Source of the DNA: Gemmatimonadota bacterium
GTDB lineage: Bacteria > Gemmatimonadota > Gemmatimonadetes > Longimicrobiales > RSA9
Assembly: GCA_019689775.1 (NCBI GenBank)
Contig: JADGGV010000001.1
Location: 1 to 49,545 of the forward strand
DNA length: 49,545 nucleotides
Direction: 5' to 3'
Shown in pieces: positions 31,557-49,326 of the stretch. Every line of letters begins with the position of its first letter. The first letter of the stretch is position 1. Made by a program: the position numbers and the translations under genes. Under the pieces are notes generated by a model that was given only the letters and a program-made list of their open reading frames with translations, was not told where the DNA came from and searched no databases.

Positions 31557-32024
31557 CTATTCGCCCTTGATCACCCAGACCTTGATCTCGGGCTTCACAT
31601 CCGCGTGGAGCCGCACCGGGACCGAGTACACCCCCAGCGCCTTGATCGGCTCCTCCAGCTCGACCTGGCGCCGGTCCACCTCGAAGTCCAGCGTCCCCAA
31701 CCCGTTCAGCCGGTCGGTGATGTCCGCCGACGTGATCGAGCCGAAGAGCTTCCCTTCCTCGCCGGCGCGCGCATTGAACGTCAGCGACACGCCCTCGAGC
31801 TGCGAGGCCCGGCGCCGCGCCTCCAGGTAGTCGCGCTTCGCCCGCGCCTCCGCGCGCCGGCGCTCCTCCTCCAACTGCCGCATGTTCGCCGCCGTCGCCT
31901 CGAACGCCAGCGACTTCGGGAGCAGGTAGTTGCGCGCGTACCCGGGCTTCACGGCCACCACCTCCCCCTCTTTCCCGAGCGCGGGCACGTCCTGACGCAG
32001 GATGACCCTCACGTTCTTCGACAT
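31557..32024 (-). CDS. rplI: 50S ribosomal protein L9
   Basis: The N-terminus VILRQDVPALGKEGEVVAVKPGYARNYLLPKSLA is typical of L9. Confidence 0.95.
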   Translation of the reverse strand: MSKNVRVILRQDVPALGKEGEVVAVKPGYARNYLLPKSLAFEATAANMRQLEEERRRAEARAKRDYLEARRRASQLEGVSLTFNARAGEEGKLFGSITSADITDRLNGLGTLDFEVDRRQVELEEPIKALGVYSVPVRLHADVKPEIKVWVIKGE

Positions 32025-32036
32025 GGTCTCACTCCC

Positions 32037-32954: not shown

Positions 32955-32958
32955 GCGA

Positions 32959-33180
32959 TCAGTCCGCGTACCGCCTCACGTACGGCAGGAGCGCCAGGTA
33001 ACGGGCCCGCTTGACCGCGGTCCCGAGCTGACGCTGATGCCGCGCACACATCCCCGTCATCCGCCGGGCGAGGATCTTCCCCTGCTCGGTCACGAAACGG
33101 CCGAGCGTCTTCTCGTCCTTGTAGTTGATCAGCCGGATGCCGTTCTCGCACATCGGGCAGTTCTTCGCGGCGCGACGCAT
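32959..33180 (-). CDS. rpsR: 30S ribosomal protein S18
   Basis: The sequence [51 protein letters not shown] is typical of S18. Confidence 0.95.
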
Positions 33181-33181
33181 C

Positions 33182-33544
33182 TCACTCCTCCTCTTCGTCC
33201 TCGTCGTCCTCGCTCCGCGGCTCGCGCGTCGCGATCGACATCGGCGCCGTCGGCTCCCCCTCGTGCAGCACCACGAGGTAGCGCAACAACTCCTCGTCCA
33301 GCTTCAGCACCCGCTCGAACTCCGGCAGCGCCTCCGTCTCGGCGCGCGCCTGCACGACGACGTAGTAGCCGTTCGTCTTCTTGGCGATCGGATACGCGAG
33401 CTGCCGGCGCCCCCACTGGTCGACGGCCGTCACCTCGCCGCCGCCGCTCGTCAGCAGGCCGTTGTAACGCTCGAGCTTCTCGTTGATGCGCTCCTCGGGG
33501 AGCGCGGAATCGAAGATGTAGACGACCTCGTAGTCTCGGACCAA
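33182..33544 (-). CDS. rpsF: 30S ribosomal protein S6
   Basis: The motifs are [11 protein letters not shown] and [19 protein letters not shown], and the tail is acidic. The probable start is the TTG at 33544, preceded by GGAGGG. The tracked ORF extends to 33601. Confidence 0.9.
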
Positions 33545-33604
33545 TGCACCCTCCTCTGGTCTGATGGCCGGGGCCGGACGGCCGCGGCAGGAGTAAAGCA
33601 AGGT

Positions 33605-33673: not shown

Positions 33674-33898
33674 CTACGGGCGCGGACGGACGGGGCGACC
33701 GGGTGGCAGCTTGAGGAAGCTGCGGAGCCGGCGCAGGTAGACGGCGAGCAGGAGTGCAACCACCGCGGAGGCGGCCGCGGCGACGAGGGAGGCCGCCGCG
33801 CGGTCGGCGAGGAAGGCCCGGACCTCCCACACCGCAAACGCGAGGAAAAAGGCGATCGCGCTGGCGATGAGCACGCGATGGAACGGCACGAGGGACAT
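33674..33898 (-). CDS. Hypothetical small membrane protein (74 aa, two TM helices)
   Basis: The sequence is MSLVPFHRVLIASAIAFFLAFAVW ... SLVAAAASAVVALLLAVYL. It is the last gene of the respiratory locus. The codon third positions are GC-rich. Confidence 0.5.
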   Translation of the reverse strand: MSLVPFHRVLIASAIAFFLAFAVWEVRAFLADRAAASLVAAAASAVVALLLAVYLRRLRSFLKLPPGRPVRPRP

Positions 33899-33925
33899 GG
33901 GCCGATTCGCTCCGTGGTGGGGCCG

Positions 33926-34897
33926 TCAGACCGGCCGCTCGATCTCGAAGCCCTCCTCCCGGAGCGCCCGACGGAGGTCCGGGTGCTCGCGCCAGAGATA
34001 ACCGCCGATGACGAGCGTCGCCAGGAGGTTTGCGACGGCGATCATGCTCCAGCTCAGCGCATCGAGCAGCCAGTTGGCGGCGATGGCGAGCAGGCCGATG
34101 AACAGCGCCTCGAAGGTCACGAAGAGCAGCGCGAACGCCAGGACGAGCGGGGGCTCGCGCTCCGCCTCGGTGGCGAGCGTGGCGGCGAGGAGGCCCGCGA
34201 TCGCGAAGGCCACGAAGTGGAGCGCGGTGTAGCCGAGGACCGTGATCAGGGTCATGCGCACTTCGCCGACGCCGCGCGCGCCGTAGAAGAGCGCGGAGCC
34301 GAGCGCGGCGGGGGTGAAGAGCACCCGCCCGCGGATGGTGTCGACGATGAGGAACCAGAGGGCGACGGCGATGGCGGCGGCGACGCCGGCGACGAGGCCC
34401 TCGCGCACGATCCGGTGGTGGGCGAGCAGCTCGTGGAGGCCGATCGGCTCGGCGCCGCTCTCCCACCGGAGCGTCACCATGAGCACGAGCCCGGCGAGGG
34501 TGTTGCCGACGAGCACCTCGGGCCAGCCGAGCGCGCGCACGACGTCGACGCCGGTCAGAACGACGCCGCCGTAGAAGAGCAGATCGAAGAGCAGGAAGCC
34601 GAGGAGCGCGCCGAGCAGCACGGTGGGGATCCGGTGCGCCCCGCGGACGGCGAGCGCGACGCCGACGCCGAGCCCGGCGAAGGCGACGTAGTGGACGACC
34701 GTGTAGAGCGCGACGGCCGGGCCGCTGTCGAGGTTCGTGGCGTGTCCGAGGACCACGCTGGCGAGGAACGCCGGGGTATGGAACGGCCGCCCCTCGACGG
34801 AGTCGACCACGAGGAACCAGAGGGCGAGCGCCGTGGCCGCGAGGATGCCGGCGAATCCGCCCCGCAGGGCCCAGGATCGTGGACTCTTCATGACCAC
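33926..34897 (-). CDS. Hypothetical 8-TM membrane protein with a 2x4-TM internal duplication
   Basis: 323 aa. The two halves align by eye: GFAGILAATALALWFLVVDSVEGRPFHTPAFLASVVLG with GLVAGVAAAIAVALWFLIVDTIRGRVLFTPAALGSALFYG, and YTVVHYVAFAGLG with YTALHFVAFAIAG. Each half carries a conserved His. Confidence 0.65.
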   Translation of the reverse strand: MVMKSPRSWALRGGFAGILAATALALWFLVVDSVEGRPFHTPAFLASVVLGHATNLDSGPAVALYTVVHYVAFAGLGVGVALAVRGAHRIPTVLLGALLGFLLFDLLFYGGVVLTGVDVVRALGWPEVLVGNTLAGLVLMVTLRWESGAEPIGLHELLAHHRIVREGLVAGVAAAIAVALWFLIVDTIRGRVLFTPAALGSALFYGARGVGEVRMTLITVLGYTALHFVAFAIAGLLAATLATEAEREPPLVLAFALLFVTFEALFIGLLAIAANWLLDALSWSMIAVANLLATLVIGGYLWREHPDLRRALREEGFEIERPV

Positions 34898-34934
34898 CTC
34901 CAGCCGGAGTAGCGGAGGGCGAGGAACGGGGGGC

Positions 34935-35084
34935 TCACTCGCCGGCGCGGTGCGGCGGCTCGAGCCGTCGGCTGGCGCGGTAGCGCTGGAGGGCGTACGC
35001 GGCGATGCCGAGGCCGAGCAGCACGGGGGGAGCCATCAGGATCAGGCCGCCCCAGAACATCCCCATCATCAACCGATCGTTCAT
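34935..35084 (-). CDS. Hypothetical single-TM peptide (49 aa)
   Basis: The sequence is MNDRLMMGMFWGGLILMAPPVLLGLGIAAYALQRY.... GGGAG lies about 10 nt upstream. The codon third positions are GC-rich. It lies 29 nt downstream of ctaB. Confidence 0.4.
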   Translation of the reverse strand: MNDRLMMGMFWGGLILMAPPVLLGLGIAAYALQRYRASRRLEPPHRAGE

Positions 35085-35113
35085 CAGACCGCGCTCCCAT
35101 CCAACGGGGCCGA

Positions 35114-36031
35114 TCAGTGGATCGCCTTGTCCAGCACCATCAGCGCGAGGAGCGCCGGCAGGTAGAGGATCGACGCGAAGAAGACGCGCCGAGCCGCCCG
35201 GGCACCGGGGTCGCGCAGCACGGCGACGCTGACGGCGGCGAAGTACGCGCCGAGCGCCAGCGCCCCGCCGAGATACGGCACGCCGCTGATCCGGAGCCCT
35301 GCCGGCGCCGCGCTCAACGCGACGAGAGCGATCGCCCAGCCGGCGATGTGGCGGGCGGTGCGTCGCCCGTCCACGTCCAGCACCGGGAGCATGCGCAGGC
35401 CGCCCCGGCGGTAGTCGTCCCGGTAGATCCACGCCAGCGAAAAGAAGTGCGGGAGCTGCCAGGCGAACAGGATCGCGAAGAGCGCGGCGACCTCGAGGCC
35501 GAGCCGGCCGCCGGCGGCGGTCCAGCCTGCCGCGATCGGCAGCGCGCCGGGGACGGCGCCGACCAGCGTCGCCAGCCAGGTCCGGCGCTTGAGCGGGGTG
35601 TAGACGAAGACGTAGCTCGTGAGGCTGAGCGCCACGAGGCCGGCGGTCACAGGATCGACGGTGAGCAGGAGGTAGCCGATCCCGATCACCGAGCACGCCA
35701 GGGCGAAGGCCAGCGCCTGCCCGCGCGACACGCGGCCGGAGGGAATCGGCCGGCCGCGCGTCCGCCGCATGCGGCCGTCGACCTCGCTCTCCCAGACCTC
35801 GTTGAGCGCGTTCGTGCCGCCCGCGGCGAGCCCCGTGCCGATCAGCGTGTGGAGCAACGGCACGGGCGCCGGCCAGCCGGGGGATGCCATGGCGAACGCT
35901 GCCGCCGTGGTGACGAGCACCAGGCGGGTGATGCCCGGCTTGGTCAGCTCGAGCAGCGCACCGGCATGACCGGCCGGGCCGGCCGCGCCGGCATCCGCCG
36001 AGCCCGCGCCCACGGGCGCCGCCGTCATCAT
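35114..36031 (-). CDS. ctaB: Protoheme IX farnesyltransferase (haem O synthase)
   Basis: The UbiA-family motifs are NALNEVWESEVDGRMRRTRGRPIPSG and YRDDYRRGG, and the protein has multiple TM helices. Confidence 0.92.
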   Translation of the reverse strand: MMTAAPVGAGSADAGAAGPAGHAGALLELTKPGITRLVLVTTAAAFAMASPGWPAPVPLLHTLIGTGLAAGGTNALNEVWESEVDGRMRRTRGRPIPSGRVSRGQALAFALACSVIGIGYLLLTVDPVTAGLVALSLTSYVFVYTPLKRRTWLATLVGAVPGALPIAAGWTAAGGRLGLEVAALFAILFAWQLPHFFSLAWIYRDDYRRGGLRMLPVLDVDGRRTARHIAGWAIALVALSAAPAGLRISGVPYLGGALALGAYFAAVSVAVLRDPGARAARRVFFASILYLPALLALMVLDKAIH

Positions 36032-36038
36032 CCGCGCC

Positions 36039-36311
36039 TCACCATCCCTCGGCGAGCACGACGAGGAGAAAGATGAGGACGAGCGGGATCGGCGTGGCGG
36101 CCAGGAGCCACATCCGTCGCGGCTCGAAGCGCAGGTGCATGTAGTACAGGGCGACGAGCAGCGCCTTCCACACCGCGAGCGCGAGCAGGATCGTGATCAA
36201 TACCGCCGCGTGCAGCCCGGAGAGGAACGCGACGCCCAGCTCCGCGATCGTGAGCACGAAGAGAATGAGCCAGATCGCGTAGTAGTTCGGCTGCTTGTGC
36301 GCGGTCTCCAT
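36039..36311 (-). CDS. Cytochrome c oxidase subunit IV family protein (90 aa)
   Basis: The sequence METAHKQPNYYAIWLILFVLTIAELGVAFL...ALLVALYYMHLRFE has three TM helices and matches the bacterial subunit IV pattern. The tracked ORF extends to 36464, but I prefer the ATG at 36311. Confidence 0.8.
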   Translation of the reverse strand: METAHKQPNYYAIWLILFVLTIAELGVAFLSGLHAAVLITILLALAVWKALLVALYYMHLRFEPRRMWLLAATPIPLVLIFLLVVLAEGW

Positions 36312-36322
36312 CTTCGCCCCAG

Positions 36323-36976
36323 TCAGATGAGGTAGACAATGGTGAACAGGATGATCCAGACGAGATCCACGAAGTGCCAGTAGAGGCCCATGATCTCGAT
36401 CCCGCCGTGGTTCTCCTGCGTGTAGCGGCCGCGGAATGCCCGGATACTGGTGAAGATGAGGCACAGCACGCCGATCGTGACGTGCGCGCCGTGGAAGCCC
36501 GTCAACGTGTAGAACGTGGCGCCGTAGAGCGGGCCGCCGAGAACCGCCGTGCCGCCGTGCCGGCCGACCGCGTGGTACAGCGAGGCCATCGGGAGCATCC
36601 CCTCGCTCGCCAGCTTCGTGTATTCCACTCCCTGGATCGACAGGAACAGGATGCCCAGCGCCGTGGTGGCGAGCAGGAAGGTGCGAAGCCCCTTCTGGTC
36701 GCCGGCCTCGATCGCCGCGAACGCCTTCACCATCGAGACGCTGCTACAGATCAGGACGAACGTGTTGAACGCCGTGAGCGGCACGTTCAGCACCGTCCCC
36801 GGAGGCGGGTACGCCGTCGGGTGCGCGAAGCGCAGAATCACGTAGGAGCCGATGAGCCCCGAAAAGAACATGACCTCGGAGAGCAGGAACACCCACATCC
36901 CGAGCTTCATGTTGTAGACGCCCATGCCCGGCATTGGCCGGCGGTCGGGGTAGGTCAGCGCGGCAGCCTGGCTCAT
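36323..36976 (-). CDS. ctaE: Cytochrome c oxidase subunit III
   Basis: The motifs are GMWVFLLSEVMFFSGL, FYTLTGFHGAHVTIG and GLYWHFVDLVWI. Confidence 0.93.
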   Translation of the reverse strand: MSQAAALTYPDRRPMPGMGVYNMKLGMWVFLLSEVMFFSGLIGSYVILRFAHPTAYPPPGTVLNVPLTAFNTFVLICSSVSMVKAFAAIEAGDQKGLRTFLLATTALGILFLSIQGVEYTKLASEGMLPMASLYHAVGRHGGTAVLGGPLYGATFYTLTGFHGAHVTIGVLCLIFTSIRAFRGRYTQENHGGIEIMGLYWHFVDLVWIILFTIVYLI

Positions 36977-37005
36977 GGCCGGCCTCCTCTCTCACCGGTT
37001 GAGGT

Positions 37006-38781
37006 TCAATTGCCGGCGGGCGCCAGGGTCGGCGCCGGCGACGGCCGCTCCAACGGGGGGCGGTCCTGCGGGAGATAATCCACCGGCGAGTCGGGCGAGC
37101 TGTACTCGTACGGCCCGCGGTAGACGATCGGCGTGACCTCGAAGTTCCCATGCGGCGGCGGCGAGGGCGCGGCCCACTCGAGCGTGTTGGCGTGCCACGG
37201 GTTCGTCTCCGCCTTCCGGCCCTTGAAGAGGCTCCACAGGAAGTTGAACACGAAGATGAGCTGGGTCGCGCCAAGGAGGAACGCGTTCACCGAGACGAAC
37301 TCGTTCATCGGCTGCACCGGCTGGAGGTGCGGGTACTGCGTCGGGTCATAGAGCCGGCGCATCATCCCGGCGATGCCGAGCAGGTGCATCGGGAAGAACG
37401 TGAGGTTGAAGAAGATGAACGTCAGGAAGAAGTGAATCTTGCCTAGCGTCTCATTCATCATGCGCCCGAACATCTTCGGGAACCAGTATGTAATTGCCGC
37501 GAAGATGCCGAACAGGGATCCGCCGAAGAGCACGTAATGGATGTGCGCGACCACGAAGTAGGTGTCGTGGAGCGGGATGTCCACGGGTGTGGCGGCTACG
37601 AACATGCCGGACAGTCCGCCGATCACGAACATCGAGACGAAGGCGAGCGCGTTCAGCATCGGTACGTGGAAGCGGATGCTGCCGCCCCAGAGCGTGCCGA
37701 GCCAGTTGAAGGTCTTGATGGCGGAGGGCACCGCGATCACGAGCGTCGAGACCATGAAGTAGCCGCCCAGCACGGGGTTCATGCCGCTCATGAACATGTG
37801 GTGGCCCCAGACGATCCAGCCGAGGAACGCGATGGCGATCATCGCGCCGACCATGGCGGGGTACCCGAAGATCGGCTTGCGGGCGCCGTTGGCGAGGATC
37901 TCGGAGACGAAGCCCATGGCCGGGAGGATCAGGATGTAGACCTCCGGGTGGCCGAAGAACCAGAACATGTGCTGCCAGAGGAGCGGCTGGCCGCCGTTGG
38001 CCGGCAGGAAGAAGGTCGTCCCGATCGTCTGATCGAAGTAGAGCAGGATCAGCGCGCCGGTCAGGATCGGGATGGCAAGCAGGATGAGGATCGCGGTGAT
38101 GAAGAGCGCCCAGACGGGGAGCGGCAGGCGGAACCAGGTCATCCCGGGCGCGCGCATGTTGATGACGGTAGTGATGTAGTTCACCGCGCCCATGAGCGAG
38201 GAGAAGCCGAGGATGATGAGGCTGAGGCACCAGAGCTGCTGGCCGGTGTGCACGCCGCTGTACTCCGGCACGGCGCTGAGCGGCGCATAGGAGGTCCAGC
38301 CGGCGCCGGCGGAGCCGCCGGCGACGAGGAAGCTCGCGAGCATCATCAGCCCGGCCGGCACCGCGGTCCAGAAGGACGCCATGTTGAGGCGCGGGAAGGC
38401 CATGTCGGGCGCGCCGATCTGGAGCGGGATGAGGTAGTTCGCGAAGACGCCCACGAGCAGCGGCATGATGGCGAAGAAGATCATGAACGTGCCGTGCATC
38501 GTGACGAGGGCGTTGTAGAACTCGGGGAGCATGACGCCGCCCGGCGCCTTGGCGTCACCGAGGATGGCGCCGCCGGGGATCGGGCGTCCCGGCCAGCCGA
38601 GCTGCCAGCGCATCGTCATGGCGAGAAGGCCACCGACGAGCAGGAAGAACAGGCTCATGAAGAGGAACTGGATCCCGATGATCTTGTGATCGGTCGAGAA
38701 GATGTATTTCCGGACGAAGCTGCGGTCGTCGTGGTGCAGCGCGTGCGCCTGAGCTTCGTGCGGCAGGGCGATCGTGCTCAT
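37006..38781 (-). CDS. ctaD: Cytochrome c oxidase subunit I (A-type haem-copper oxidase)
   Basis: The motifs are TDHKIIGIQFLF, WFFGHPEVYILILP, WGHHMF and VVAHIHYVLFGG. Confidence 0.96.
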   Translation of the reverse strand: MSTIALPHEAQAHALHHDDRSFVRKYIFSTDHKIIGIQFLFMSLFFLLVGGLLAMTMRWQLGWPGRPIPGGAILGDAKAPGGVMLPEFYNALVTMHGTFMIFFAIMPLLVGVFANYLIPLQIGAPDMAFPRLNMASFWTAVPAGLMMLASFLVAGGSAGAGWTSYAPLSAVPEYSGVHTGQQLWCLSLIILGFSSLMGAVNYITTVINMRAPGMTWFRLPLPVWALFITAILILLAIPILTGALILLYFDQTIGTTFFLPANGGQPLLWQHMFWFFGHPEVYILILPAMGFVSEILANGARKPIFGYPAMVGAMIAIAFLGWIVWGHHMFMSGMNPVLGGYFMVSTLVIAVPSAIKTFNWLGTLWGGSIRFHVPMLNALAFVSMFVIGGLSGMFVAATPVDIPLHDTYFVVAHIHYVLFGGSLFGIFAAITYWFPKMFGRMMNETLGKIHFFLTFIFFNLTFFPMHLLGIAGMMRRLYDPTQYPHLQPVQPMNEFVSVNAFLLGATQLIFVFNFLWSLFKGRKAETNPWHANTLEWAAPSPPPHGNFEVTPIVYRGPYEYSSPDSPVDYLPQDRPPLERPSPAPTLAPAGN

Positions 38782-38824
38782 GTCCCTTCCTCTGTGCTCG
38801 GGAAGCGCGGCGTCGCCGCGGTGG

Positions 38825-39517
38825 TCACCGGGCCGCGTCGGCGGTCCGCACCTGCGTCTGCTGCTGGACCCAGCGCTGGAAATCCTCCTGCGACTGCACG
38901 ATCACGCGCCCCCGCATGCGGTAGTGACCGAGGCCGCAGAGCTCGGCGCAGCCGAGGACGAACTCTCCGGTCTTCGTCGCCTGGAACCAGGCGGGGATCT
39001 CCATGCCGGGGACGGCGTCCTGCTTCAGCCGGAACTGCGGGAGGAAGAACGAGTGGATGACGTCCTCGGCGCGGAGCGTGATGTGGACGGGGACGCCGAC
39101 GGGGATGTCGAGCTCGTTACGCTTCTCGAAGTCGTCGGCGGTGCCGAAGCGGCCGTCGAGCCCCGGGTAGGTGACGTGCCACTCGAACTGCTTCGCCGTG
39201 ACGTTGAGCTCGAGGCCGCCGCGCGGGAAGCGGGCCGGCTCCTTGACGGCGTACCAGAGCGGCTGGCTCGCGAGGCCGAGGAAGAAGACGATCGCGAACG
39301 TGGCCGTCGTCCAGATGATCTCGAGCCGCGTGTTGCCGTGGCTGAAGATGGCCCGGCGACCCTCACGGGCCCGGTACTTCACGATGTAGTAGACCAGCAG
39401 GACCTCGACGAGCACGAAGACGATGCCCGTGATCCAGAGGATCGTGAAGAAGAGCGAGTCGATGCGCGGGCCGAACGTCGAGACGTCCTCCGGGAGCGGC
39501 ATCCACCAGCGTTCCAT
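38825..39517 (-). CDS. ctaC: Cytochrome c oxidase subunit II (CuA site present, no fused cytochrome c domain)
   Basis: Two N-terminal TM helices are followed by DVIHSFFLPQF and the CuA motif CAELCGLGHYRM. The 230-aa protein contains no CxxCH. Confidence 0.92.
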   Translation of the reverse strand: MERWWMPLPEDVSTFGPRIDSLFFTILWITGIVFVLVEVLLVYYIVKYRAREGRRAIFSHGNTRLEIIWTTATFAIVFFLGLASQPLWYAVKEPARFPRGGLELNVTAKQFEWHVTYPGLDGRFGTADDFEKRNELDIPVGVPVHITLRAEDVIHSFFLPQFRLKQDAVPGMEIPAWFQATKTGEFVLGCAELCGLGHYRMRGRVIVQSQEDFQRWVQQQTQVRTADAAR

Positions 39518-39552
39518 GGGCCGACCTCCTCCGCGGGTTGTGGCCCGGCGCC

Positions 39553-40425
39553 TCAGCGGGCCGCGCCGTGGCTGGTGCCGGGGTGGGCGTGGGCGGCCAC
39601 GCGCGGGGCGCCGGGCGCCGGCGCGCGAGCGGTCGCGTTACCGTCGTAGGTGAAGTCCAGCGTCTTCGTCTCGTTGGGGCCCAGCGTCACCTGCTGCGTC
39701 TTGGTGCCGTACTTCTCGTGCCACGCGGTGATCGTGTAGGTGCCCGGCGGCAGGTTGCCGATCGTGTACTTGCCGCCGTTGGCGCTGGCCGCGAAGTACG
39801 GATGGTCGAAGACGGCGATGGTGGCGTGCATCCAGTTGTGGACGTTGCACTCCACGGGGATGTCCGGCTCGGCCACGTCGAACGTCCGCGCGGTCTCCAT
39901 CGTCGTCGGCTGGCTGATGTTGAACGGCCGGTTCTTCGTCGGCTTCGTCTTGATGTTGTGGAGGATGCCGTCGGCGTTCTTGATGGTGAGCTTCTGGCCG
40001 ACCTGCATGACCACGACGTGCGGCTTGTAGATGCAGCCGTCCTGGTCGATCTCGGCGGGTTGCGCCGGCGGCGCGTAGGTCTGGGCCGGCAGCCCCTCGC
40101 TCACGTAGACGACGACGTTCTCGAGCCCGCCGTCGTCGACGACGACCTCGTCCGTCGTCACGCCGCCCGGGTGCTTCTGCGCGCACACCGGCTCGCTCGA
40201 CATGTCGATGGGCGTGCCCGCCGGCGGCGTCCCGGTGAACCGGATCGTCCCGGTGAGGGTGGCCGCGTCGGCGACCGGCGCCGCCGGGGCGGCCTTCTGC
40301 TCGCCCGCCGGGGCGGCGCCGGAAGCGGCCTGCTCGCCGTCGGGTCTCGAGCCGCCGCACGCGGCCAGCGCCGCGGCCGCCACGATCACGAAAAGCTTCT
40401 CGACGCGCGCCATACGGTTCGACAT
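39553..40425 (-). CDS. Lipoprotein with a cupredoxin-like domain (putative type-1 Cu site) and a CarboxypepD_reg-like C-terminal domain
   Basis: A lipobox is present (VAAAALAAC). Candidate Cu ligands are ILHNIK and ECNVHNWM (C-x2-H-x2-M). The C-terminus reads KYTIGNLPPGTYTITAWHEKYGTKTQQVTL. GGAGG lies upstream of the ATG at 40425. The tracked ORF extends to 41115. Confidence 0.7.
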   Translation of the reverse strand: MSNRMARVEKLFVIVAAAALAACGGSRPDGEQAASGAAPAGEQKAAPAAPVADAATLTGTIRFTGTPPAGTPIDMSSEPVCAQKHPGGVTTDEVVVDDGGLENVVVYVSEGLPAQTYAPPAQPAEIDQDGCIYKPHVVVMQVGQKLTIKNADGILHNIKTKPTKNRPFNISQPTTMETARTFDVAEPDIPVECNVHNWMHATIAVFDHPYFAASANGGKYTIGNLPPGTYTITAWHEKYGTKTQQVTLGPNETKTLDFTYDGNATARAPAPGAPRVAAHAHPGTSHGAAR

Positions 40426-40451
40426 GGTTCCTCCCTCGCGAGGTGAACGCA

Positions 40452-42095: not shown

Positions 42096-42898
42096 CGCGC
42101 ACCTCCTTCCGCGGTGTCCCACGTCCGCGGCGTCCACCCGGTCTGGTCGTAGAGGAAGATGATGACGGCCCAGATCTCCCGCTCGGTGAGGAAGTCCTCC
42201 CAGGCGGGCATCGCGGAGTTCCATGGCGTGCCCTCCTTCGGCAGGCCCCGTCCGCCCTTGGCGATCCGCCAGAAGACGAAGCTCTCCGTGAGCTGGGGAA
42301 TCGTACCGTTGTCCGTGAAGTCGGCCGGCGGCGGGTTGAACCCGTGGGCGAAGTGCCCCTTGCCGTTGAGCTGGTCGCCGTGGCAGGCGACGCAGTTCTG
42401 GTAGTAGACGCGGCGGCCTTCCTCGACGTGGTCGCGCAGGTTCCCTTCCTTGCGCAGCGGGTTCTCGAGCCCCGCCAGCGTCATGGTCTTGCCGCGGAAC
42501 GTGATGGTGGACGGCGGCGCCGGGTGGATCGAGCGCAGGTTCGGCGGCGCCTCGACGGAGGGCCGGACCTGCCGGTAGGTGATGAACCCGGCGAGGAGCG
42601 GGACGGTCACGAGGAGCGCCAGTCGATAGAGGCGCTGGCTCGGGTCGACCAGCACACGCTGGATCGGCGCCTTGAACGCCCGCCAGCGATCCTCCGTCGC
42701 GCTGACGTAGAGCAGGACGCCGACGGCGACGGTCAGCATGTACTGGAGCAGCACCGTATGTGGGACGGGCGCGCTCTTCACGCCGAGCAGCGGCGGGATG
42801 TAGGCGATGCCGAAGCGGAACAGCAGGTACGCGACGGCCAGGATCAGCAGCGCCTGCACGAACGGATGGGAGAGTCGGCTCTTCACGACGTCCCTCAC
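42092..42898 (-). CDS. Membrane-anchored mono-haem c-type cytochrome (three N-terminal TM helices)
   Basis: The haem-c motif is CVACHGDQ, and AMPAW supplies a candidate distal Met. The probable GTG start at 42898 overlaps the upstream stop (GTGA). An alternative GTG lies at 42886. Confidence 0.75.
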   Translation of the reverse strand: MRDVVKSRLSHPFVQALLILAVAYLLFRFGIAYIPPLLGVKSAPVPHTVLLQYMLTVAVGVLLYVSATEDRWRAFKAPIQRVLVDPSQRLYRLALLVTVPLLAGFITYRQVRPSVEAPPNLRSIHPAPPSTITFRGKTMTLAGLENPLRKEGNLRDHVEEGRRVYYQNCVACHGDQLNGKGHFAHGFNPPPADFTDNGTIPQLTESFVFWRIAKGGRGLPKEGTPWNSAMPAWEDFLTEREIWAVIIFLYDQTGWTPRTWDTAEGGAR

Positions 42899-43683
42899 TT
42901 TCGGGAGGCGAGATAGCGGACGAGCGCCTCGAGCTGCGCGGCGCTGAGCCGCTCCCCGAAGTCCTTCGGCATGATCCCGGCGACCTTCTCGTAGCCCTTC
43001 GCGGTGTCGGCGTTCGGGTCGAGGATCGACCGGCGGATGTAGTCGGCGGTCCTCGTGGCGCCGATGTGGTCGAGCGGCGGCGCGATCGTCGTCCCCTCGC
43101 TGCCGAGGTGGTGGCAGGTGAGGCAGGTGTTCTCGCGGAGGAGCGCGACCGGGTCGGTCGTCGCGCTGCGGGCCGGCGCGGCCGGGGCCACGCCCTGCGC
43201 CGGCGCCGGCGCGGCGGCCTTCACGTCCGCGGCCGAGACCGTGACCTCCCCGCCCTGGCTCTCGAGGAAGGCGACGAGGGCCCAAATCTGCGCCGGCGAG
43301 AGCGTGCGGCTCATGTCGGGCATGATCGGCTGATAGCCCGGGACGACGTACGCGGTCGGCTTGACCAGCGACTCGTGCAAGTAGTCCTTGCACGTCATCC
43401 CCGGCTTCCGCGTGCCGCAGCGGGCGCCGATCGTGCCCTGGCCGTGCTCATCGGTGAGGAGGTTCGGCGCGCGCGTGCCCAGCCCGTGGCACGCGGTGCA
43501 GCCGCCCGCGCCGTTGAACAGCTCCTCGCCGGCGGAGACGAGCTGCTCCGGGGTGACGTCGCCCGAGAGGTTCATCTCCCGGGGGACCTCGGACTCCACC
43601 TGGGGGATGGCGTTGCAGACGACGGTGTAGAGCCCGATCGTGCCGAGCACGACGGCGGCGATCCGGAGATTCGTCGCCCCCAT
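42895..43683 (-). CDS. Membrane-anchored di-haem c-type cytochrome
   Basis: The N-terminal TM helix is LRIAAVVLGTIGLYTVV. The haem-c motifs are CTACHGLG and CLTCHHLG, each followed by a Met-containing segment (PIMPDM and AGIMPKDF). Confidence 0.8.
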   Translation of the reverse strand: MGATNLRIAAVVLGTIGLYTVVCNAIPQVESEVPREMNLSGDVTPEQLVSAGEELFNGAGGCTACHGLGTRAPNLLTDEHGQGTIGARCGTRKPGMTCKDYLHESLVKPTAYVVPGYQPIMPDMSRTLSPAQIWALVAFLESQGGEVTVSAADVKAAAPAPAQGVAPAAPARSATTDPVALLRENTCLTCHHLGSEGTTIAPPLDHIGATRTADYIRRSILDPNADTAKGYEKVAGIMPKDFGERLSAAQLEALVRYLASRK

Positions 43684-43731
43684 ACGGATGCGTCCCCTCC
43701 CTCCGGGGCGAGGCCCCGGACCGTAGGAGCG

Positions 43732-45540
43732 TCAGTCTGCGCCGCCGGCGATGGCGAGCTCCCGCTCCGGCGCCCGCTCGGCGCCCGCCGCCGCGGGCGG
43801 GGCGTACGTGGACTTCTCGACGAGCCCGCCGAGCCAGAAGACGATGGCGATGAGCGCCAGGAAGATGAGCACGCAGACGCTGATCATCTTCGATGCGTAG
43901 CCGAGGGCCGGCGTGGCGGCCCACGGACTCGTGTCGCGCATGACGTTCCAGACGTGCCAGTGCTGGCGGATGCCGCTGCGGGCGAAGCCCATGAGGCCCA
44001 TGAGCCAGGTGAACGTGACGGCCAGCACGAGGAGGGCGTACTGCGAGCGCGCGGGCATCTGGCCCCAGCGGATCGCGCCGCGCGATTCGGCGCCGCGGAG
44101 CATCAGCACGTCCAGGACGAGGACCGTGACGATCGTCACGATCACGGAGAGCACCTGGTAAACGCTGAAGCCGATGCGGACGATCGCGGTGACGAAGTAG
44201 CCGTAGACGCCGAAGAAGATCACGATGGCGGCGGAGATGGCGAACAACGCCGCCTGGACGCGGGTAGCGGCGCGCGCCCAGGAGACGCTCGGCCGCTTGT
44301 TCGCCCGCCGATAGAGCAGGTACGACAGGAAGGTGCTGAGGATCATGAGGTTGACGGCCGTGTTCTTGGCGCTCATGACCCCGAGGAACCCGAGGAGCGG
44401 ATGGTGGGAGCCGCCCATGGCGGCCTGCTCGGCGCGCGAGGCGATCATGGTGTGCGGCGTCGACCAGACGAGCACGCCGAGGACGAGGACGCCGAGGATC
44501 CAGCGCGTGTAGGGGGTGAAGCGCTCGGCGCCGGGGATCCGCGCCATGCCGACCCAGAGATAGTAGTTGCCCGCAAGGAACAGCACGCCGATGAGGAAGG
44601 CCTGGATGATCCAGAGCCAGCTCATGAAGCCGCCCATCATCGTGATGCCCATCCCCTGGTCGTACTGATAGATCTCCCGCCCGAGCCAGTAGCCGGCGAA
44701 GGGGAGGATGAGCAGGCTGCTGATCGCGATGAAGTTCCCGACGTACCCCATCCAGTCGTAGTGGGCGCGCTCCTCGTCGGTCCGCGCCGCCAGGAAGCGG
44801 TAGGCGGCGTACGCGCCGACGATCGAGCCGCCGAACACGACGTTGGCGATCAGGCGGTGAATGTTGATCGGCATCCAGGTCGCGTTGGCCATCGCGCTCC
44901 AGAGGCGGATCGTCTCCGGCGCGGTGTCGGTCGAGACCTGGGGCGGCGGGCTCATCATGTAGCTGAGCCAACTGTCGGCGATGAACATGACGGCGGTGCC
45001 CCAGAGGTTCAGGAGCACGCCGAGCCCGAGGTGGATCTTCTTGCGGATGCCGTCCTTCAGGGATTCCCAGCCGTAGTAGTACAGGTAGAGCGTGAACGAC
45101 TCGAAGAAGAACAACCCTACGTAGACCCACATGGAGACGTGGAATATCGTGCTCATGTAGGTCCAGAACTTCGGGTAGAGCGTACTCAGGAAGAAGACGA
45201 GTATCGCCCCCCAGATGGCCGTGGCGCTGTAGGCGATGAGGAGGAGTCGGGTAAACTCCTTCGCCAGCTTGTCGTAGCGCTTGTCGGTGCCGAAGATGCC
45301 GATCGCCTCGACGGTGACCGCGAAGAGGGGGACGCCGAGCACGAAGGCGGCGAACATCAGGTGCACCTCGGCCGCGATCCAGATCGCGCCGCGCCCGCCG
45401 ACGAGCGGGAAGTTGCCGTAGTCGCGCGCGGCGGCCGCCTGTTGGGCGAACGCCGGGACCGCCACCGCACCCAGCATCAGGAGGACGAGGCCGCCGAAAC
45501 CGGCCAGCCGAGGGAACGAGACCCGCGACTCAGGCGTCAT
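43732..45540 (-). CDS. Cytochrome bd ubiquinol oxidase subunit I (CydA)-like membrane protein, divergent, with no partner CydB
   Basis: 602 aa and polytopic. By-eye matches to CydA blocks are AAEVHLMFAAFVLG (TM1 His), GLFFFESFTLYLYYYGW, KKIHLGLG...FIADSWLSYMMSPP and NIHRLIANVVFGGSIVGAYAAYRFL. There is no long Q-loop. Extra C-terminal helices are present. Confidence 0.7.
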   Translation of the reverse strand: MTPESRVSFPRLAGFGGLVLLMLGAVAVPAFAQQAAAARDYGNFPLVGGRGAIWIAAEVHLMFAAFVLGVPLFAVTVEAIGIFGTDKRYDKLAKEFTRLLLIAYSATAIWGAILVFFLSTLYPKFWTYMSTIFHVSMWVYVGLFFFESFTLYLYYYGWESLKDGIRKKIHLGLGVLLNLWGTAVMFIADSWLSYMMSPPPQVSTDTAPETIRLWSAMANATWMPINIHRLIANVVFGGSIVGAYAAYRFLAARTDEERAHYDWMGYVGNFIAISSLLILPFAGYWLGREIYQYDQGMGITMMGGFMSWLWIIQAFLIGVLFLAGNYYLWVGMARIPGAERFTPYTRWILGVLVLGVLVWSTPHTMIASRAEQAAMGGSHHPLLGFLGVMSAKNTAVNLMILSTFLSYLLYRRANKRPSVSWARAATRVQAALFAISAAIVIFFGVYGYFVTAIVRIGFSVYQVLSVIVTIVTVLVLDVLMLRGAESRGAIRWGQMPARSQYALLVLAVTFTWLMGLMGFARSGIRQHWHVWNVMRDTSPWAATPALGYASKMISVCVLIFLALIAIVFWLGGLVEKSTYAPPAAAGAERAPERELAIAGGAD

Positions 45541-46849
45541 GGCGGAGGAAGAAGGGGGTGCGTTTCGAGAAGTCGACGGGGAGCGCCCGCCGCACCTCGT
45601 CGAGGAGCTCGGGCGTGACCTCGGCGCGGCCGTGCTCGCGGGCGAAGCGCTCGACGCGAGCGACGACGACGGCGCGAACGAAGCTCGGGATCCGGTCGAT
45701 GCGCCGGCGCGCCTCGCGGGTCCAGGCGAGCTCGTGGCGGGCGGCGGCGCCGTAGGTCACGGGACGGCGCGGCTCGATCGGCGGCAGCATGCCGGAGGGC
45801 TCGTAGGCGCAGGCGCCGTCGGCGGCGAGCACGTCGCCGGTTTCGGCGTACGCACGGGCGCGGCAGCCGCCGCAGACGTGCCGGTACTCGCACGCGCCGC
45901 AGCGCCCGCCGAGGCGGCCGGCCCGCAGCTCGGCGAGGAGGGGCGAGGCGCGCCAGACAGTGGCGAAGTCGTCTTGCCGGAGATCCCCGGCCACGAGTGG
46001 CAGGTACGGGCAGGGCGTGAGCTTCCCCTCCGGGGTGATCCGGCAGTACTGCACGCCGCAGGGGCAGCGCGTCGCGTAGTTGAGGAGCGGCGAGTCAGGG
46101 TCGTCCTCGAGCGCGATGCGCATGATCTGCGGGTGGCACTTCGAGCGGACCATCATGCGTCCGCGGTACTCGCGCTCGAGCCGGACGAGCCGCCGGAGGA
46201 CGGCCTCGTTCTCGGCGGGCTCGAGGCCGCGCATGGCACCGCCTCGTCCGGTGGCGACGAGGAAGTAGACGTTGAAGGCGACGGCGCCGCGGGCGGCCGC
46301 CCACTCCGCGAGGGCTTCAAGCTCGTCGCAGTTCCCGCGGGTCAGGGTGGTCTGGACGATGAAGTCGAGGTCGGCGGTGCGGAGGCGCTCAACCGCCGCC
46401 AGGGTGTCCGCCAGCGCGCCCGCGCCATGGCGGAACCGGTCGTGGTAGCGCGGCCGGAGCGAGTCGATGCTTACGGCGACGCCCTGGACGCCGGCGCCCT
46501 GGAGCGAACGGATCCGCTCGGCGCTGAGCAGCGTGCCGTTCGTGCCGACGACCACGGTCGCGCCCCGGGCGGCGGCGTGGGCGGCGATCTCCTCGAGGTC
46601 CGCACGGAGCAGCGGCTCGCCGCCGCTCAGGATGAACAGAGGCGCCGGATTCACCCCGAGGATCTCGTCCGTGATGCGCCGGCACTCGGCCGTCGTGAGG
46701 TCGGACCCGGTCGCGTGCCAGGCGCCCGCGGCGATGTAGCAGTGCGAGCACGCCAGGTTGCACCGCCGGGTCAGGTTCCAGGCGACGACGTGTGGGACGG
46801 CGGCGTCCGCACGCGCGTCCATAGGGGGCGCCTCGAGCGAGCCCGCCAT
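45530..46849 (-). CDS. Radical SAM/SPASM protein of the AhbC/AhbD/NirJ type, fused to a C-terminal PCP_red-like domain
   Basis: The N-terminal cluster motif is VVAWNLTRRCNLACSHCY (CxxxCxxC). The SPASM-like Cys cluster is CPCGVQYCRITPEGKLTPCPY...CGACEYRHVCGGCRARAY. The C-terminus reads LAWTREARRRIDRIPSFVRAVVVARVERFAREHG. The start could be 46849, 46822 or 46888. Its 3' end overlaps the CydA-like ATG by 11 nt. Confidence 0.78.
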   Translation of the reverse strand: MAGSLEAPPMDARADAAVPHVVAWNLTRRCNLACSHCYIAAGAWHATGSDLTTAECRRITDEILGVNPAPLFILSGGEPLLRADLEEIAAHAAARGATVVVGTNGTLLSAERIRSLQGAGVQGVAVSIDSLRPRYHDRFRHGAGALADTLAAVERLRTADLDFIVQTTLTRGNCDELEALAEWAAARGAVAFNVYFLVATGRGGAMRGLEPAENEAVLRRLVRLEREYRGRMMVRSKCHPQIMRIALEDDPDSPLLNYATRCPCGVQYCRITPEGKLTPCPYLPLVAGDLRQDDFATVWRASPLLAELRAGRLGGRCGACEYRHVCGGCRARAYAETGDVLAADGACAYEPSGMLPPIEPRRPVTYGAAARHELAWTREARRRIDRIPSFVRAVVVARVERFAREHGRAEVTPELLDEVRRALPVDFSKRTPFFLRHDA

Positions 46850-46892
46850 GACCACATCCCGCCGGCTTCCGCCCGGGACGCCGCGCATCGCC

Positions 46893-48920
46893 TCAGGCCC
46901 CGCGAGAGTCGGCCAGGGACTCGATCGCGCGCTTCGCCTCCTGCGGCGTCACCCCCTTGAAGTCGACCGGACACTTCTCCATCGACGCCTCGATGTCGCG
47001 GATCGGGCAGCGCGTGACGCCGGACGAGCGGGCCTCGTCGATGAACCGGCGCATCTCGGGAGAGAGCGCCTCGACGCCCTCCGCCTCCGCCTTGAGTTGC
47101 TTGGCCTGAAGCTCCTTGAACATCACGAGCATGGTGTCGAGGTCGAACTCGTCGGCCTCGATCATCGCCTGGCGGTTTTCGTCCATGACCCGGGTGGTCA
47201 CGCGCCAGATCCCGTGCTCGCGGGCGAAGCGCTCGACGGTGTTGCGGGCGAGCGGCCGGGCGATCAGCGGGACGAGCGAGAGGCGCTCGAACGCCTCGGC
47301 CGTCCACACGACGGGGTCCCGGGCGGTCCGCGGCCGCAGCGAGACGTGCCCGGTGTACGGGCAGCGTGCCTCCACCATCGGCACGTCCGGCTCCGGGTCG
47401 GCGTCGTGCCCCTCGACGACGGTCCGGCGCATCGCCTCCTCGGCCTTCAGCTCTGCCAGCGCCAGCTCCTCGGCGGTGCCGATCCCCATGATGAGCTGCA
47501 TGTGCGTGGGGAGGAGCTTCCGGATCGCCTCGTCGAGGCGCTCGTTGGTGACAATCGGCAGCACCGGATCGCGGCCGTCCGGCGATGGTCCGCCGGCGCC
47601 GCCGTCGGCGGGAGCGCCGTAATGCTCGAGGACGAACTCCTCGACGGCCTTCCGGGCGATCCCGAGCGCGAACGGCGGGACGCGGAGGATGCGCACCTCC
47701 GCCTCCGGCGCCCACTCCAGCCCGGTCTGCCCGTCCTCCTCGATCCAGGGGATATCCTCCGGGTGCACCGCCTCCGTCCCGACCAGGAGCACGCTGGACG
47801 GCGCCAGGCGGACCAGGTTCTCGGCCTGCGAGCCGAGGTCGGTCCCCGCGATCCGGTGCGAGCCGTGGCGCGCGATGACGAGGAGCGACGGGCGAATCTC
47901 CTGCGCCCATTGGAGGATCACCTGGAACGGCTTGCCGATCAGGATCTGCGTGTGCAGCTCGACGTCCGGGAACTCCGACGCCATCACCTGCGCCCGCTTG
48001 ATGTTCGCCTGCGTCAGCTTGAGGAGTCCCTTGTCGATGATGTTGTTGTGAAGCTCCTCCTGCTCCTCGAACTTGAAGACCTTCGAGGCCTGGACCGACA
48101 GCACGTCCTTGATGTTGTGGAAGACGGCGTGGTGGTACTCGACGTCGAACGCGCTGCACACGTAGAGCACGGCCTCGAACTCCCGAGCCAGCTCCAGCGC
48201 GACGCGCAGCGCCTTGTACGCGTACGCGGAGCCGTCCACGCAGACCATGAACCGGCCGCCCCGCAGCGGGGTGGCGTCGCGCACGATCAGGACGTCCTTC
48301 TCCACGCCGCGGACCACCCGCGCGACCACGCCGCCGAGCTGGCTGTAGGCCTGCCGCCCGATCCCGTGCGCCCCGATGGCGACGAGGTCGTAGCGCCGGC
48401 CCGTCGAGCCGGCCAGCTTGTCCTCCGCCGCCTCGTCCTCCGCCTCGATGCGCCCGTTCGCGCCCAGGCGAACGTCGCCGCGGACGCGCGCGCCACCGTC
48501 GTACTTGAACGCGATGTTCGGATCGAAGCCGATCAGGCTCGGGAGCCGCCCCTCCCCGCGGTTCGCCTCCCGGATGATCTCCTCGTAGTTGATCCCCTCG
48601 AGGAGCTGGCGGGTCAGCGGGACTCCCGCCTCCCGACAACGCACGTCGACCTGGTCCAGGAAGCTGTCCGAGATGAGCTGGAGCCCCTTCTCGATCAGCT
48701 TGTCGTGGACCTTGCGTTGCCGCTTGATCTCCTCAGGGGTCTGGAACCGTGCGGGGAGGCCGGTCTCGAGCTGGCGGAAGCGGATGTCGTGCAGGCGGGC
48801 GGCGTAGACGTGGGTGCCTGTGATGCGCCCCCGTGAGCGGCGTGCCAGCTCGATGGCGCGATCCACGGCCCAGTCCGAGCACGCCGAGTTGTCAACGGGG
48901 ACCAGGATTTCCCGATACAT
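46893..48920 (-). CDS. Tandem universal stress protein (USP) domains fused to two PCP_red-like domains
   Basis: USP domain 1 is MYREILVPVDNSACSDWAVDRAIELA...DLVAIGAHG...VLIV. USP domain 2 is FMVCVDGSAYAYKALRVALELA...LLVIARHGSH...VLLV. The two PCP_red-like blocks are LEWAPEAEVRILRVPPFALGIARKAVEEFVLEHYG and VVWTAEAFERLSLVPLIARPLARNTVERFAREHG. GAGG lies upstream of the ATG at 48920. The tracked ORF extends to 49184 through an Arg-rich, non-protein-like stretch. Confidence 0.75.
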   Translation of the reverse strand: MYREILVPVDNSACSDWAVDRAIELARRSRGRITGTHVYAARLHDIRFRQLETGLPARFQTPEEIKRQRKVHDKLIEKGLQLISDSFLDQVDVRCREAGVPLTRQLLEGINYEEIIREANRGEGRLPSLIGFDPNIAFKYDGGARVRGDVRLGANGRIEAEDEAAEDKLAGSTGRRYDLVAIGAHGIGRQAYSQLGGVVARVVRGVEKDVLIVRDATPLRGGRFMVCVDGSAYAYKALRVALELAREFEAVLYVCSAFDVEYHHAVFHNIKDVLSVQASKVFKFEEQEELHNNIIDKGLLKLTQANIKRAQVMASEFPDVELHTQILIGKPFQVILQWAQEIRPSLLVIARHGSHRIAGTDLGSQAENLVRLAPSSVLLVGTEAVHPEDIPWIEEDGQTGLEWAPEAEVRILRVPPFALGIARKAVEEFVLEHYGAPADGGAGGPSPDGRDPVLPIVTNERLDEAIRKLLPTHMQLIMGIGTAEELALAELKAEEAMRRTVVEGHDADPEPDVPMVEARCPYTGHVSLRPRTARDPVVWTAEAFERLSLVPLIARPLARNTVERFAREHGIWRVTTRVMDENRQAMIEADEFDLDTMLVMFKELQAKQLKAEAEGVEALSPEMRRFIDEARSSGVTRCPIRDIEASMEKCPVDFKGVTPQEAKRAIESLADSRGA

Positions 48921-49297
48921 TCTCGCCTCGATCCAGCGCAGGGAATCCGCGGAAGCACGGTCATTTCCGGGCCCGGCGCGAGATCGGACGGGTGCGCGGC
49001 ACGAAGAGGTCCCAGGCAAGACACCGAGGGGGTCCCGCTTCCGCCAGTGGCGCCCGAAGCGAACCTTCGGACGCGGCTGCACAGTCACCGTCTCGCGAAG
49101 ACCGCAGCGGAAAGACGCGTCGCTTCTGCCGCAAAACAGCGGGTCGGCCGGGCGCGAGCGCCCGAGCCGGCCTGTCATCGGCACCGGTCGAGGTCTTGCT
49201 GTGCGACGCCGCCAGGTCCCGGAGGGCGGGGCGGCAAAGAGATGGCAGCGAGCGAGCTCGCCTGCGGTCGAAGCGGTCTTTGGTTGCGGATGAGGCG

Positions 49298-49326
49298 ATA
49301 ATAAGGAGCGGCGCGAGGGCTGTCAA
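49298..49326 (-). promoter_or_regulatory. Near-consensus sigma70-type promoter upstream of the respiratory locus
   Basis: The minus strand reads TTGACA-N17-TATTAT. Such a match is very improbable by chance in roughly 70% GC DNA. It lies about 370 nt upstream of the USP-gene ATG. Confidence 0.6.

Follow-up and report, generated by a model that had tools for sequence, protein, structure and literature searches.

The cytochrome bd superfamily comprises, besides the canonical CydAB quinol oxidases, an OR-N family that lacks the quinol site (Murali, Gennis & Hemp, 2021). Its OR-N2 subfamily is the bd-like protein of Nitrospira, Nitrospina, anammox bacteria and Manganitrophus, and a set made up of the bd-like protein, mono- and dihaem cytochromes c, a cupredoxin and an alternative NxrC is common to Nitrospina, Nitrospira and Kuenenia. 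In Nitrospira moscoviensis the cluster "bd-like_3 / alt_NxrC_2 / two cytochromes c" ranks among the 40 most transcribed genes. Lücker et al. (2013) suggested that the module of nitrite oxidisers acts as an alternative complex III working in the reverse direction. We describe here a locus of this type in a Gemmatimonadota bacterium (assembly GCA_019689775.1, contig JADGGV010000001.1); the whole stretch of DNA that was analysed, 49,545 nucleotides long, is referred to below as the window. Fifteen successive minus-strand genes at 33674-48920 form one respiratory operon joining an OR-N2-type module to an A1-type aa3 oxidase and a haem O synthase. Our preferred reading, to which we assign a probability of about 0.4, is that the module acts as a quinol:cytochrome c/cupredoxin oxidoreductase and hence as an alternative complex III; comparative evidence has strengthened this idea without proving it.

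The membrane core of the module is a CydA-like protein of 602 aa (43732-45540; this and all other genes of the operon lie on the minus strand). It matches the Pfam family Cyt_bd_oxida_I (PF01654) with an E-value of 1e-21, covering just profile positions 8-241 of 418, and its matches to CydA structures span residues 51-201 (5DOQ_A, E 5e-10) or 54-292. An AlphaFold 2 (AF2) model built on a 42-sequence alignment (predicted local distance difference test, pLDDT, 84.7; predicted TM-score, pTM, 0.85) has a signal or anchor helix and 13 transmembrane (TM) helices. Foldseek ranks 1-10 in the PDB are all CydA (E 1e-8 to 1e-6, target-normalised TM-score 0.5-0.68); the same search assigned no other fold to the extra helices, and the match to ActC was insignificant (E 0.012, TM-score 0.25-0.30). 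The residues H60 (in 42 sequences), E78, E147, H170, H228, H363, H380, M389, K392, R521, R525 and H529 are invariant across Gemmatimonadota and Nitrospirota. H60, E147, H170 and H228 are the equivalents of His19, Glu107, His126 and His186 of E. coli CydA, and the haem b558 ligands His186 and Met393 have counterparts in H228 and M389, which the model places at the periplasmic starts of helices, the Met being assigned by position alone. All the invariant residues except E147 and H170 appear in the model to lie near the periplasmic face.

By these features the module is assigned to OR-N2. Y140, E147, Y154 and Y156 correspond to OR-N2 Y183, E190, Y197 and Y199, thus reproducing the Y140/E147 pair and the Tyr+7/Tyr+9 signature along with the His19/His126/His186 equivalents. 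As in described OR-N2 proteins, there are about 14 TM helices, only the first four to five of which can be aligned to CydA, and the gene neighbours are a dihaem cytochrome c, a monohaem cytochrome c, a dihaem c2-EB_dh protein, cupredoxin/CarboxypepD_reg proteins and a small PCP_red protein. The correspondence is direct in Nitrospira sp. Kam-Ns4a (locus L084, reached through P0379), whose bd-like gene product is 47% identical over its full length to the CydA-like protein of the window. Downstream of it come, in unchanged order, genes for homologues of the dihaem (24%), monohaem (41%) and c2-EB_dh (32%) proteins, with three cupredoxin/CarboxypepD_reg genes and a small PCP_red gene in the vicinity; the Nitrospirota relatives P0394 and P0311 are stand-alone paralogues. 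The closest proteins, at 73-93% identity, all come from Gemmatimonadota metagenome-assembled genomes. More widely, over 7,500 relatives satisfy the E-value threshold among the 8,000 candidates scored, and 1,124 clusters at 50% identity give a match. Three distant representatives (P0121, P0125 and P0129) carry one or two CxxCH motifs at the C terminus of the bd-like protein itself.

The locus departs from the described OR-N2 clusters in several respects. It belongs to an apparent heterotroph and is without nxr genes, it is co-operonic with a full aa3 oxidase and ctaB, and it is preceded by genes for a universal stress protein (USP) fused to PCP_red and for a NirJ/AhbD-like radical SAM protein. 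Unlike this locus, members of the OR-N1 and OR-N5 subfamilies have petABD genes accompanying the bd-like protein. The protein shares the overall CydA fold and the N-terminal haem-binding helices with CydAB oxidases, yet it has four to five extra helices, three more invariant His residues (H363, H380 and H529) and cytochromes c as partners, and it lacks the Q-loop and the quinol residues. No CydB-like protein was detected among the Pfam-scanned open reading frames (ORFs) of the locus and the rest of the window. With neither CydB nor a Q-loop, the locus is ruled out as a canonical CydAB oxidase.

The three cytochromes c encoded next to the CydA-like protein together hold five CxxCH motifs (2+1+2), and, apart from the cupredoxin domain discussed below, Pfam recovers each domain that the first-pass annotation had named. 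A distal Met is conserved at all five c-haem sites in alignments of 63-71 sequences (the window protein with its homologues). The first carrier (42895-43683, 262 aa) has an N-terminal anchor, two CxxCH motifs and conserved M121 and M238; its Kuenenia homologue Kustd1711 (PDB 7ZS0, E 1e-24) has haems at about +350 mV. The second, which starts with GTG (42092-42898, 268 aa), combines about three TM helices with one CxxCH and conserved M230 and H125. The third (40452-42095, 547 aa) consists of a dihaem cytochrome c (Pfam Cytochrome_CBB3 twice), an EB_dh domain (1e-16) and a C-terminal TM helix; it matches the NCBIfam model DMSO_red_II_gam (TIGR03477, 1e-32) and, in the PDB, 6H5L_B (2e-57), EbdC (5e-10) and Kuenenia NxrC (2e-4). 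The haem-b ligand positions of EbdC/NxrC-type subunits are present in the window protein as M402 and K494. In 42/63 homologues the Lys is replaced by Arg, so haem-b binding by this domain may not be universal in the family.

The next gene (39553-40425, 290 aa) encodes a lipoprotein, with the lipobox LAAC, in which a putative cupredoxin-type type 1 copper (T1Cu) site precedes a CarboxypepD_reg domain. The first-pass annotation had called it a T1Cu lipoprotein. As to domains that call found no backing: Pfam reports CarboxypepD_reg alone with no cupredoxin match, and a plastocyanin match is weak (E 0.22). The copper site itself was retained because H156, C193, H196 and M199 are conserved in 55/55 sequences (the window protein and 54 homologues), which speaks for a type 1 copper site. 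With Met-ligated c haems, a relative at about +350 mV and invariant T1Cu ligands, these carriers appear suited to act as donors to the aa3 oxidase.

That oxidase follows directly. CtaC, subunit II (38825-39517, 230 aa; Pfam COX2 and COX2_TM), has a complete CuA motif, H...CAELCGLGHYRM, and no CxxCH, as expected from the earlier observation that it bears no fused cytochrome c. CtaD, subunit I (37006-38781, 591 aa; Pfam COX1, 4e-153), has the motifs GHPEVY and WGHHMF and is of the A1 type. CtaE, subunit III (36323-36976, 217 aa; COX3, 8e-26), and a prokaryotic subunit IV (36039-36311, 90 aa; COX4_pro, 6e-14) complete the enzyme. Thus the CuA site in subunit II, the GHPEV Glu and the CuB/haem His residues in subunit I, and subunits III and IV are all those of an A-type haem-copper cytochrome c oxidase. 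The haem O synthase CtaB (35114-36031, 305 aa; UbiA, 1e-59) is encoded immediately after it.

The window has a G+C content of about 72% and raw ORF lists are swamped by spurious frames; genes were therefore called by frame analysis of third-position GC content (GC3) combined with ORF tracing. This upheld the earlier description of fifteen same-strand genes with tight junctions. Distances within the run range from -11 to +48 nt, the 11-nt overlap being that between the radical SAM and CydA-like genes, and both of the reported GTGA start/stop overlaps are real, at the junctions of the monohaem c gene with the dihaem c gene before it and the EB_dh gene after it. The sigma-70-like promoter noted upstream (49298..49326, minus strand) is likewise present as TTGACA-17-TATTAT and agrees with 11/12 consensus positions, a consensus match only. 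A second promoter-like site (33633-33605) stands in front of rpsF, between the operon and the genes downstream of it. These are the only two sites of such quality in a 16.5-kb scanned region, against 0.9 expected, and they flank the fifteen genes with none in between.

The same arrangement recurs in a comparative survey. One scan of species-representative genomes, mapped by tblastn with the window proteins, yielded 80 loci (numbered L below). In 57/57 loci with at least 4.5 kb of downstream sequence the order of the four core genes (CydA-like, dihaem c, monohaem c, c2/EB_dh) is identical, across at least six phyla (with Gemmatimonadota, Methylomirabilota/Rokubacteria, Myxococcota, Acidobacteriota, Fibrobacterota and Rhodothermales among the taxa). 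The aa3 genes lie downstream of the module in 32/32 Gemmatimonadota loci, and in 10/11 loci of Methylomirabilota/Rokubacteria, where the cox genes have the different order ctaC-D-B-E-E. In a Rhodothermales locus (L080) the cox genes come before the module, in the order lipoprotein (g07, the seventh gene of the window operon)-ctaD-ctaE-x-x-ctaC-CydA-like, and ctaC overlaps the start of the CydA-like gene by 4 nt, a translational coupling. The cupredoxin lipoprotein gene follows the module in 32/32 Gemmatimonadota loci. Module and aa3 oxidase are thus supported as one conserved unit. Because the gene order is constant and genes are fused, as are those for the monohaem c and c2/EB_dh proteins in NC10 (L055, 12512-14695; L063, 8623-10902), the four core proteins probably form one physical complex.

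The association reaches upstream as well. The USP-PCP_red and radical SAM-PCP_red genes precede the module in 37/37 Gemmatimonadota loci. The pair is also module-linked in NC10, Myxococcota, Rhodothermales and Acidobacteriota, the radical SAM gene alone in Fibrobacterota, and it is often joined by genes for a ParA/Mrp-like ATPase, a small PCP_red protein and a ferredoxin. A Myxococcota locus (L062, 3403-15510) carries two divergent copies of the whole module, with bd-like protein, cytochromes c and cupredoxin, and no cox genes nearby.

The first-pass annotation had noted the absence from the window of both conventional quinol:cytochrome c systems, and this stands: no Rieske, cytochrome b or Act gene is found among its Pfam-scanned ORFs, so that a disguised bc1 complex or alternative complex III of the ActABCDEF type (ACIII) is ruled out for this locus. 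To bc1/b6f complexes the module is comparable only in its proposed role, the transfer of electrons from quinol to a high-potential carrier. The resemblance to ACIII goes further, in that the module lies directly upstream of the oxidase genes and employs multihaem cytochrome c carriers ending at the oxidase. However, it has no ActB-type iron-sulfur (FeS) protein, no pentahaem ActA and no NrfD-type ActC/ActF, and its membrane core has the CydA fold; among the window proteins scanned with Pfam none matches Fer4_11, Molydop or NrfD.

It is in the Acidobacteriota that the two systems meet. In 4/4 loci of this phylum (L073, 5261-11644; L081, 5579-11701; L085, 5636-21339; L086, 5855-21271) genes for ActA, ActB and ActE stand immediately before the bd-like gene, giving the order ActA-ActB-ActE-like cytochrome c-bd-like-cytochrome c-cytochrome c-c2/EB_dh. 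The Act proteins are a c7-type pentahaem ActA, an FeS ActB with a twin-arginine translocation (TAT) signal and an ActE-like monohaem lipoprotein; in tblastn searches with ActA, ActB and ActE, matches occurred in L073 and L081 only. No NrfD-type ActC or ActF was found within 10 kb, as judged from Pfam gene tables for L085 and L086 and from the scanned ORFs of L073 and L081. Where the sequence extends far enough (L081, L085 and L086), a USP/PCP_red gene comes after the hybrid core, and in L085 and L086 there follow genes for a GNAT protein, a ParA-like ATPase, the radical SAM protein and a small PCP_red protein that precedes it, with a cox operon at the far end. Divergently upstream in the Acidobacteriota loci are genes for ferrochelatase, a HemY-like oxidase, SCO1 and DoxX. 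ActC is the quinol-binding membrane subunit of ACIII. Since ActABE precedes the bd-like subunit and no ActC/F was detected, the bd-like protein sits where the quinol-binding membrane subunits of ACIII would be, which provides the strongest comparative hint that it supplies the quinol side. To judge from its genes, the Acidobacteriota operon resembles an ACIII in which the bd-like module has taken the place of the membrane arm.

On the preferred reading, the bd-like subunit would oxidise menaquinol at a non-canonical site near the periplasm-facing haems, around the H228/M389 haem, and the protons would be released outside. Electrons would then travel by way of the c haems, which have His/Met ligation and by homology a potential of about +350 mV, to the T1Cu protein and on to the CuA site of the aa3 oxidase. 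The USP-PCP_red and radical SAM-PCP_red proteins would be accessory, probably supplying or tailoring haem and regulating expression. The idea of a quinol:cytochrome c activity is not new, and the family and its gene cluster are already known. What strengthens it is the coupling to aa3 genes in three phyla, the ActABE hybrids, the reported presence of the module in anammox bacteria and a gap in the genomic record of complex III. Anammox bacteria, which are strict anaerobes, are reported to have kept the bd-like cluster, and a connection to quinone has been put forward for it there. As to the gap, among 326 Gemmatimonadota genomes petB is present in 23%, ACIII in fewer than 10% and coxA in 82% (Zheng et al., 2022), and the authors of those statistics suspected novel complex III modules.

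Several observations weigh against a quinol-oxidising role. The first-pass annotation had advanced that role as a working hypothesis; synteny and donor chemistry favour it, but the canonical quinol-site residues are absent. No quinol site was identified in the CydA-like subunit: the hidden Markov model match ends before the Q-loop, the Lys252/Glu257 pair of the quinol site is missing, and in the AF2 model the Q-loop is replaced by two TM helices and a loop, the region of which carries H363 and H380. Published alignments of the bd-like family also find the quinol-binding residues absent. In true bd oxidases the counterparts of the invariant H60, E147 and H170 are the ligand of the active-site haem and residues of the proton channel on the cytoplasmic side, a pattern that agrees better with a substrate-reducing than with a quinol-oxidising protein. 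Nor is an anticorrelation with petB visible, this gene being carried by 3/16 (19%) of the genomes with cydA and without cydB, against 23% overall, in the small sample of genomes listed in Data Set S4 of Zheng et al. (2022). Finally, the family has been interpreted by Murali et al. and by Yu et al. as O2 reductases that depend on cytochrome c, and the Manganitrophus TO_1 cluster is at the 98th expression percentile.

These points lead to the alternative that the module is itself a terminal reductase, accepting electrons from cytochrome c or cupredoxin and reducing O2, or possibly NO, so that two oxidases would share carriers fed by a complex III encoded elsewhere. No activity other than O2 reduction is known in the superfamily, what the protein has in common with CydA is the active-site four-helix bundle with its invariant H60, E147 and H170, and Murali et al. 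give cytochrome c as the likely donor of OR-N2. TO_1, which has the same composition, has been read as a very highly expressed terminal oxidase, and such expression data come from organisms with few other oxidases. The bd-like protein shows no known quinol motif, the partner haems are all high-potential, as the donors of an oxidase should be, and the module-linked, putatively tetrapyrrole-modifying radical SAM enzyme could make a special haem for the active site. Yet in the table of Murali et al. the haem b595 ligand Glu445 is replaced in OR-N2 by Ser/Ala and Glu99 by Tyr, and the Tyr is confirmed here as Y140. The reported conservation of the cluster in anaerobic anammox bacteria is at odds with a terminal reductase, as is the apparent joint transcription with a full aa3 oxidase in 32/32 loci, which would be strange for a second oxidase acting independently. 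Operons that combine ActA-ActB-ActE with the bd-like gene, and in which ActC/F was not detected, would lack a point of entry for quinol, and most Gemmatimonadota have no recognisable complex III to serve as feeder. On balance we consider a terminal reductase less likely than the preferred reading, and its main competitor. The argument from a special haem was downgraded, because ferrochelatase and a HemY-like gene adjoin the Acidobacteriota clusters; plain haem b supply by coproheme decarboxylation explains the radical SAM enzyme equally well.

The EB_dh subunit invites a different explanation, in which the module neither binds quinone nor reduces O2 and serves as a membrane haem/copper wire and docking platform leading electrons from periplasmic dehydrogenases through the EB_dh protein to the aa3 oxidase, in the way suggested for nitrite oxidoreductase in nitrite oxidisers. 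EB_dh proteins are the electron-exit subunits of periplasmic type II DMSO-reductase-family enzymes; the cluster is nxr-linked in Nitrospira, Nitrospina and Kuenenia, where it has been discussed as an anchor for nitrite oxidoreductase, and the Nitrospira locus described above has the same core genes. This is improbable for the present locus, as neither the window nor the Gemmatimonadota flanks contain a gene for a molybdoenzyme or periplasmic dehydrogenase. A 13-TM protein with at least six invariant His residues and an invariant Glu/His channel would be excessive for an anchor, and the position of the EbdC Lys ligand is mostly occupied by Arg. Least probable of all is operation of the module in reverse, driving electrons from high-potential periplasmic carriers into the quinone pool at the expense of the proton-motive force. 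Such a role was suggested for the orthologous cluster in Nitrospina and Nitrospira, and the conserved proton path that faces the cytoplasm (E147, H170) could be used to protonate quinone. In the window, however, housekeeping genes and the absence of nxr give no pointer to lithotrophy on a high-potential donor, and the joint transcription with a terminal oxidase points to electrons running downhill to O2. We regard reverse flow in this organism as very improbable.

The two genes at the head of the operon are probably accessory to the module. The first (46893-48920, 675 aa; USP-USP-PCP_red) encodes a cytoplasmic protein in which tandem USP domains are combined with two PCP_red domains (Pfam Usp 6e-34, PCP_red 2e-14), whose start, MYREILVPVDN, is conserved in L001; it is likely a regulator or accessory factor. 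The second (45530-46888, 452 aa) has Radical_SAM, SPASM and C-terminal PCP_red domains. Its best matches out of 69 matching NCBIfam families are NirJ2 (290 bits) and the haem b synthase AhbD (278 bits), both below the 500-bit cut-off. From this similarity and from the gene neighbours in Acidobacteriota it could be an O2-independent coproheme decarboxylase for haem supply, or a tailoring enzyme for a special haem. Ferrochelatase adjoins the Acidobacteriota clusters in L081 (2274-3317), and together with the HemY-like oxidase in L085 (3054-5452) and L086 (1817-4332). The radical SAM protein and these genes could represent the O2-independent end of the coproporphyrin-dependent haem pathway. In most relatives genes for a ParA/Mrp-like protein, a small PCP_red protein and a ferredoxin precede the USP gene, whereas these are missing in the window. 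PCP_red, the C-terminal domain of the protochlorophyllide reductase BchB, is found on four module-linked proteins, namely the USP-fused and radical SAM-fused forms (those of the window being the two just described), a stand-alone protein of about 150 aa and one of about 305 aa; examples outside the window lie in L001 (5978-6427), L062 (15543-16454), L069 (10023-10958) and L084 (8443-8904). The domain may serve in tetrapyrrole binding or in docking. Between the promoter-like site and the USP gene is a leader of 377 nt (48921-49326 region), in DNA of 72% G+C; an Rfam search of the entire window, leader included, matched no family.

At the other end of the run, the claim that all fifteen genes form one unit holds for the module and oxidase and is weaker for the last three genes, which are linked only loosely in relatives. 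Thus, the 49-aa hydrophobic ORF (34935-35084), with one TM segment and no family match, is of uncertain gene status and has a tblastn homologue in just 1/80 related loci. It is followed by genes for a protein of 321 aa with about 8 TM helices (33926-34891) and for a 74-aa membrane protein (33674-33898) loosely associated with the unit. The genes for the 8-TM and 74-aa proteins shift in orientation and position among relatives: the former lies near cox genes in 13 relatives, in either orientation, and the latter has homologues in 18 loci, again in variable orientation. The 8-TM protein consists of two homologous 4-TM halves, 36% identical (E 4e-16), each with one conserved His-containing motif, and searches up to E 10 gave neither a Pfam nor a PDB match for it; the 74-aa protein matches no family above threshold. 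The operon has no recognisable ctaA, and a haem-A-related role of the 8-TM protein is conceivable. The proposal that it is the missing haem A synthase was set aside, given the lack of Pfam and PDB matches and a single-sequence AF2 model that was unusable (pLDDT 47.7).

The same-strand run goes on past the fifteen genes into rpsF and rplI, which at 31557-33601 flank the gene for a 305-aa hydrophobic protein (32037-32954) on the same strand without a family match. Housekeeping functions account for the remaining large ORFs scanned in the window (macB/ftsX-like, mnmA, dnaJ, grpE, dnaX, DAHP synthase, smc, SPOR, Omp85/PD40, rplI and rpsF).

Several of these features we did not find described, namely the coupling of the module to an oxidase within one operon in apparent heterotrophs, the nearly universal conservation of that operon in Gemmatimonadota and Rokubacteria, the radical SAM/USP/PCP_red genes linked to it and the ActABE-bd-like hybrids; our literature search returned no paper mentioning both "bd-like" and Gemmatimonad*. 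They speak to a recognised gap, in that most Gemmatimonadota genomes have cytochrome c oxidases and no recognisable complex III. They also lead us to a broader proposal, which we put forward only tentatively: that the OR-N2 module may represent a third class of quinol:cytochrome c/cupredoxin oxidoreductase with an unrelated structure. In many Gemmatimonadota, Methylomirabilota/Rokubacteria and Acidobacteriota it would be the principal complex III; it would replace the ActC/D/F arm in the last of these, would run in reverse in nitrite oxidisers and anammox bacteria, and may need a haem delivered or tailored by the radical SAM enzyme. Genes of the bd-like type rank among the most strongly expressed genes for respiration in nitrite and manganese oxidisers and are very abundant in metagenomes. 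Synteny sharpens the old question of what the bd-like protein does and makes it testable: with the module tied to the aa3 genes in three phyla and joined to ActABE in another, its function can be addressed in heterotrophs, whose cultivation is less demanding than that of nitrite oxidisers or anammox bacteria.

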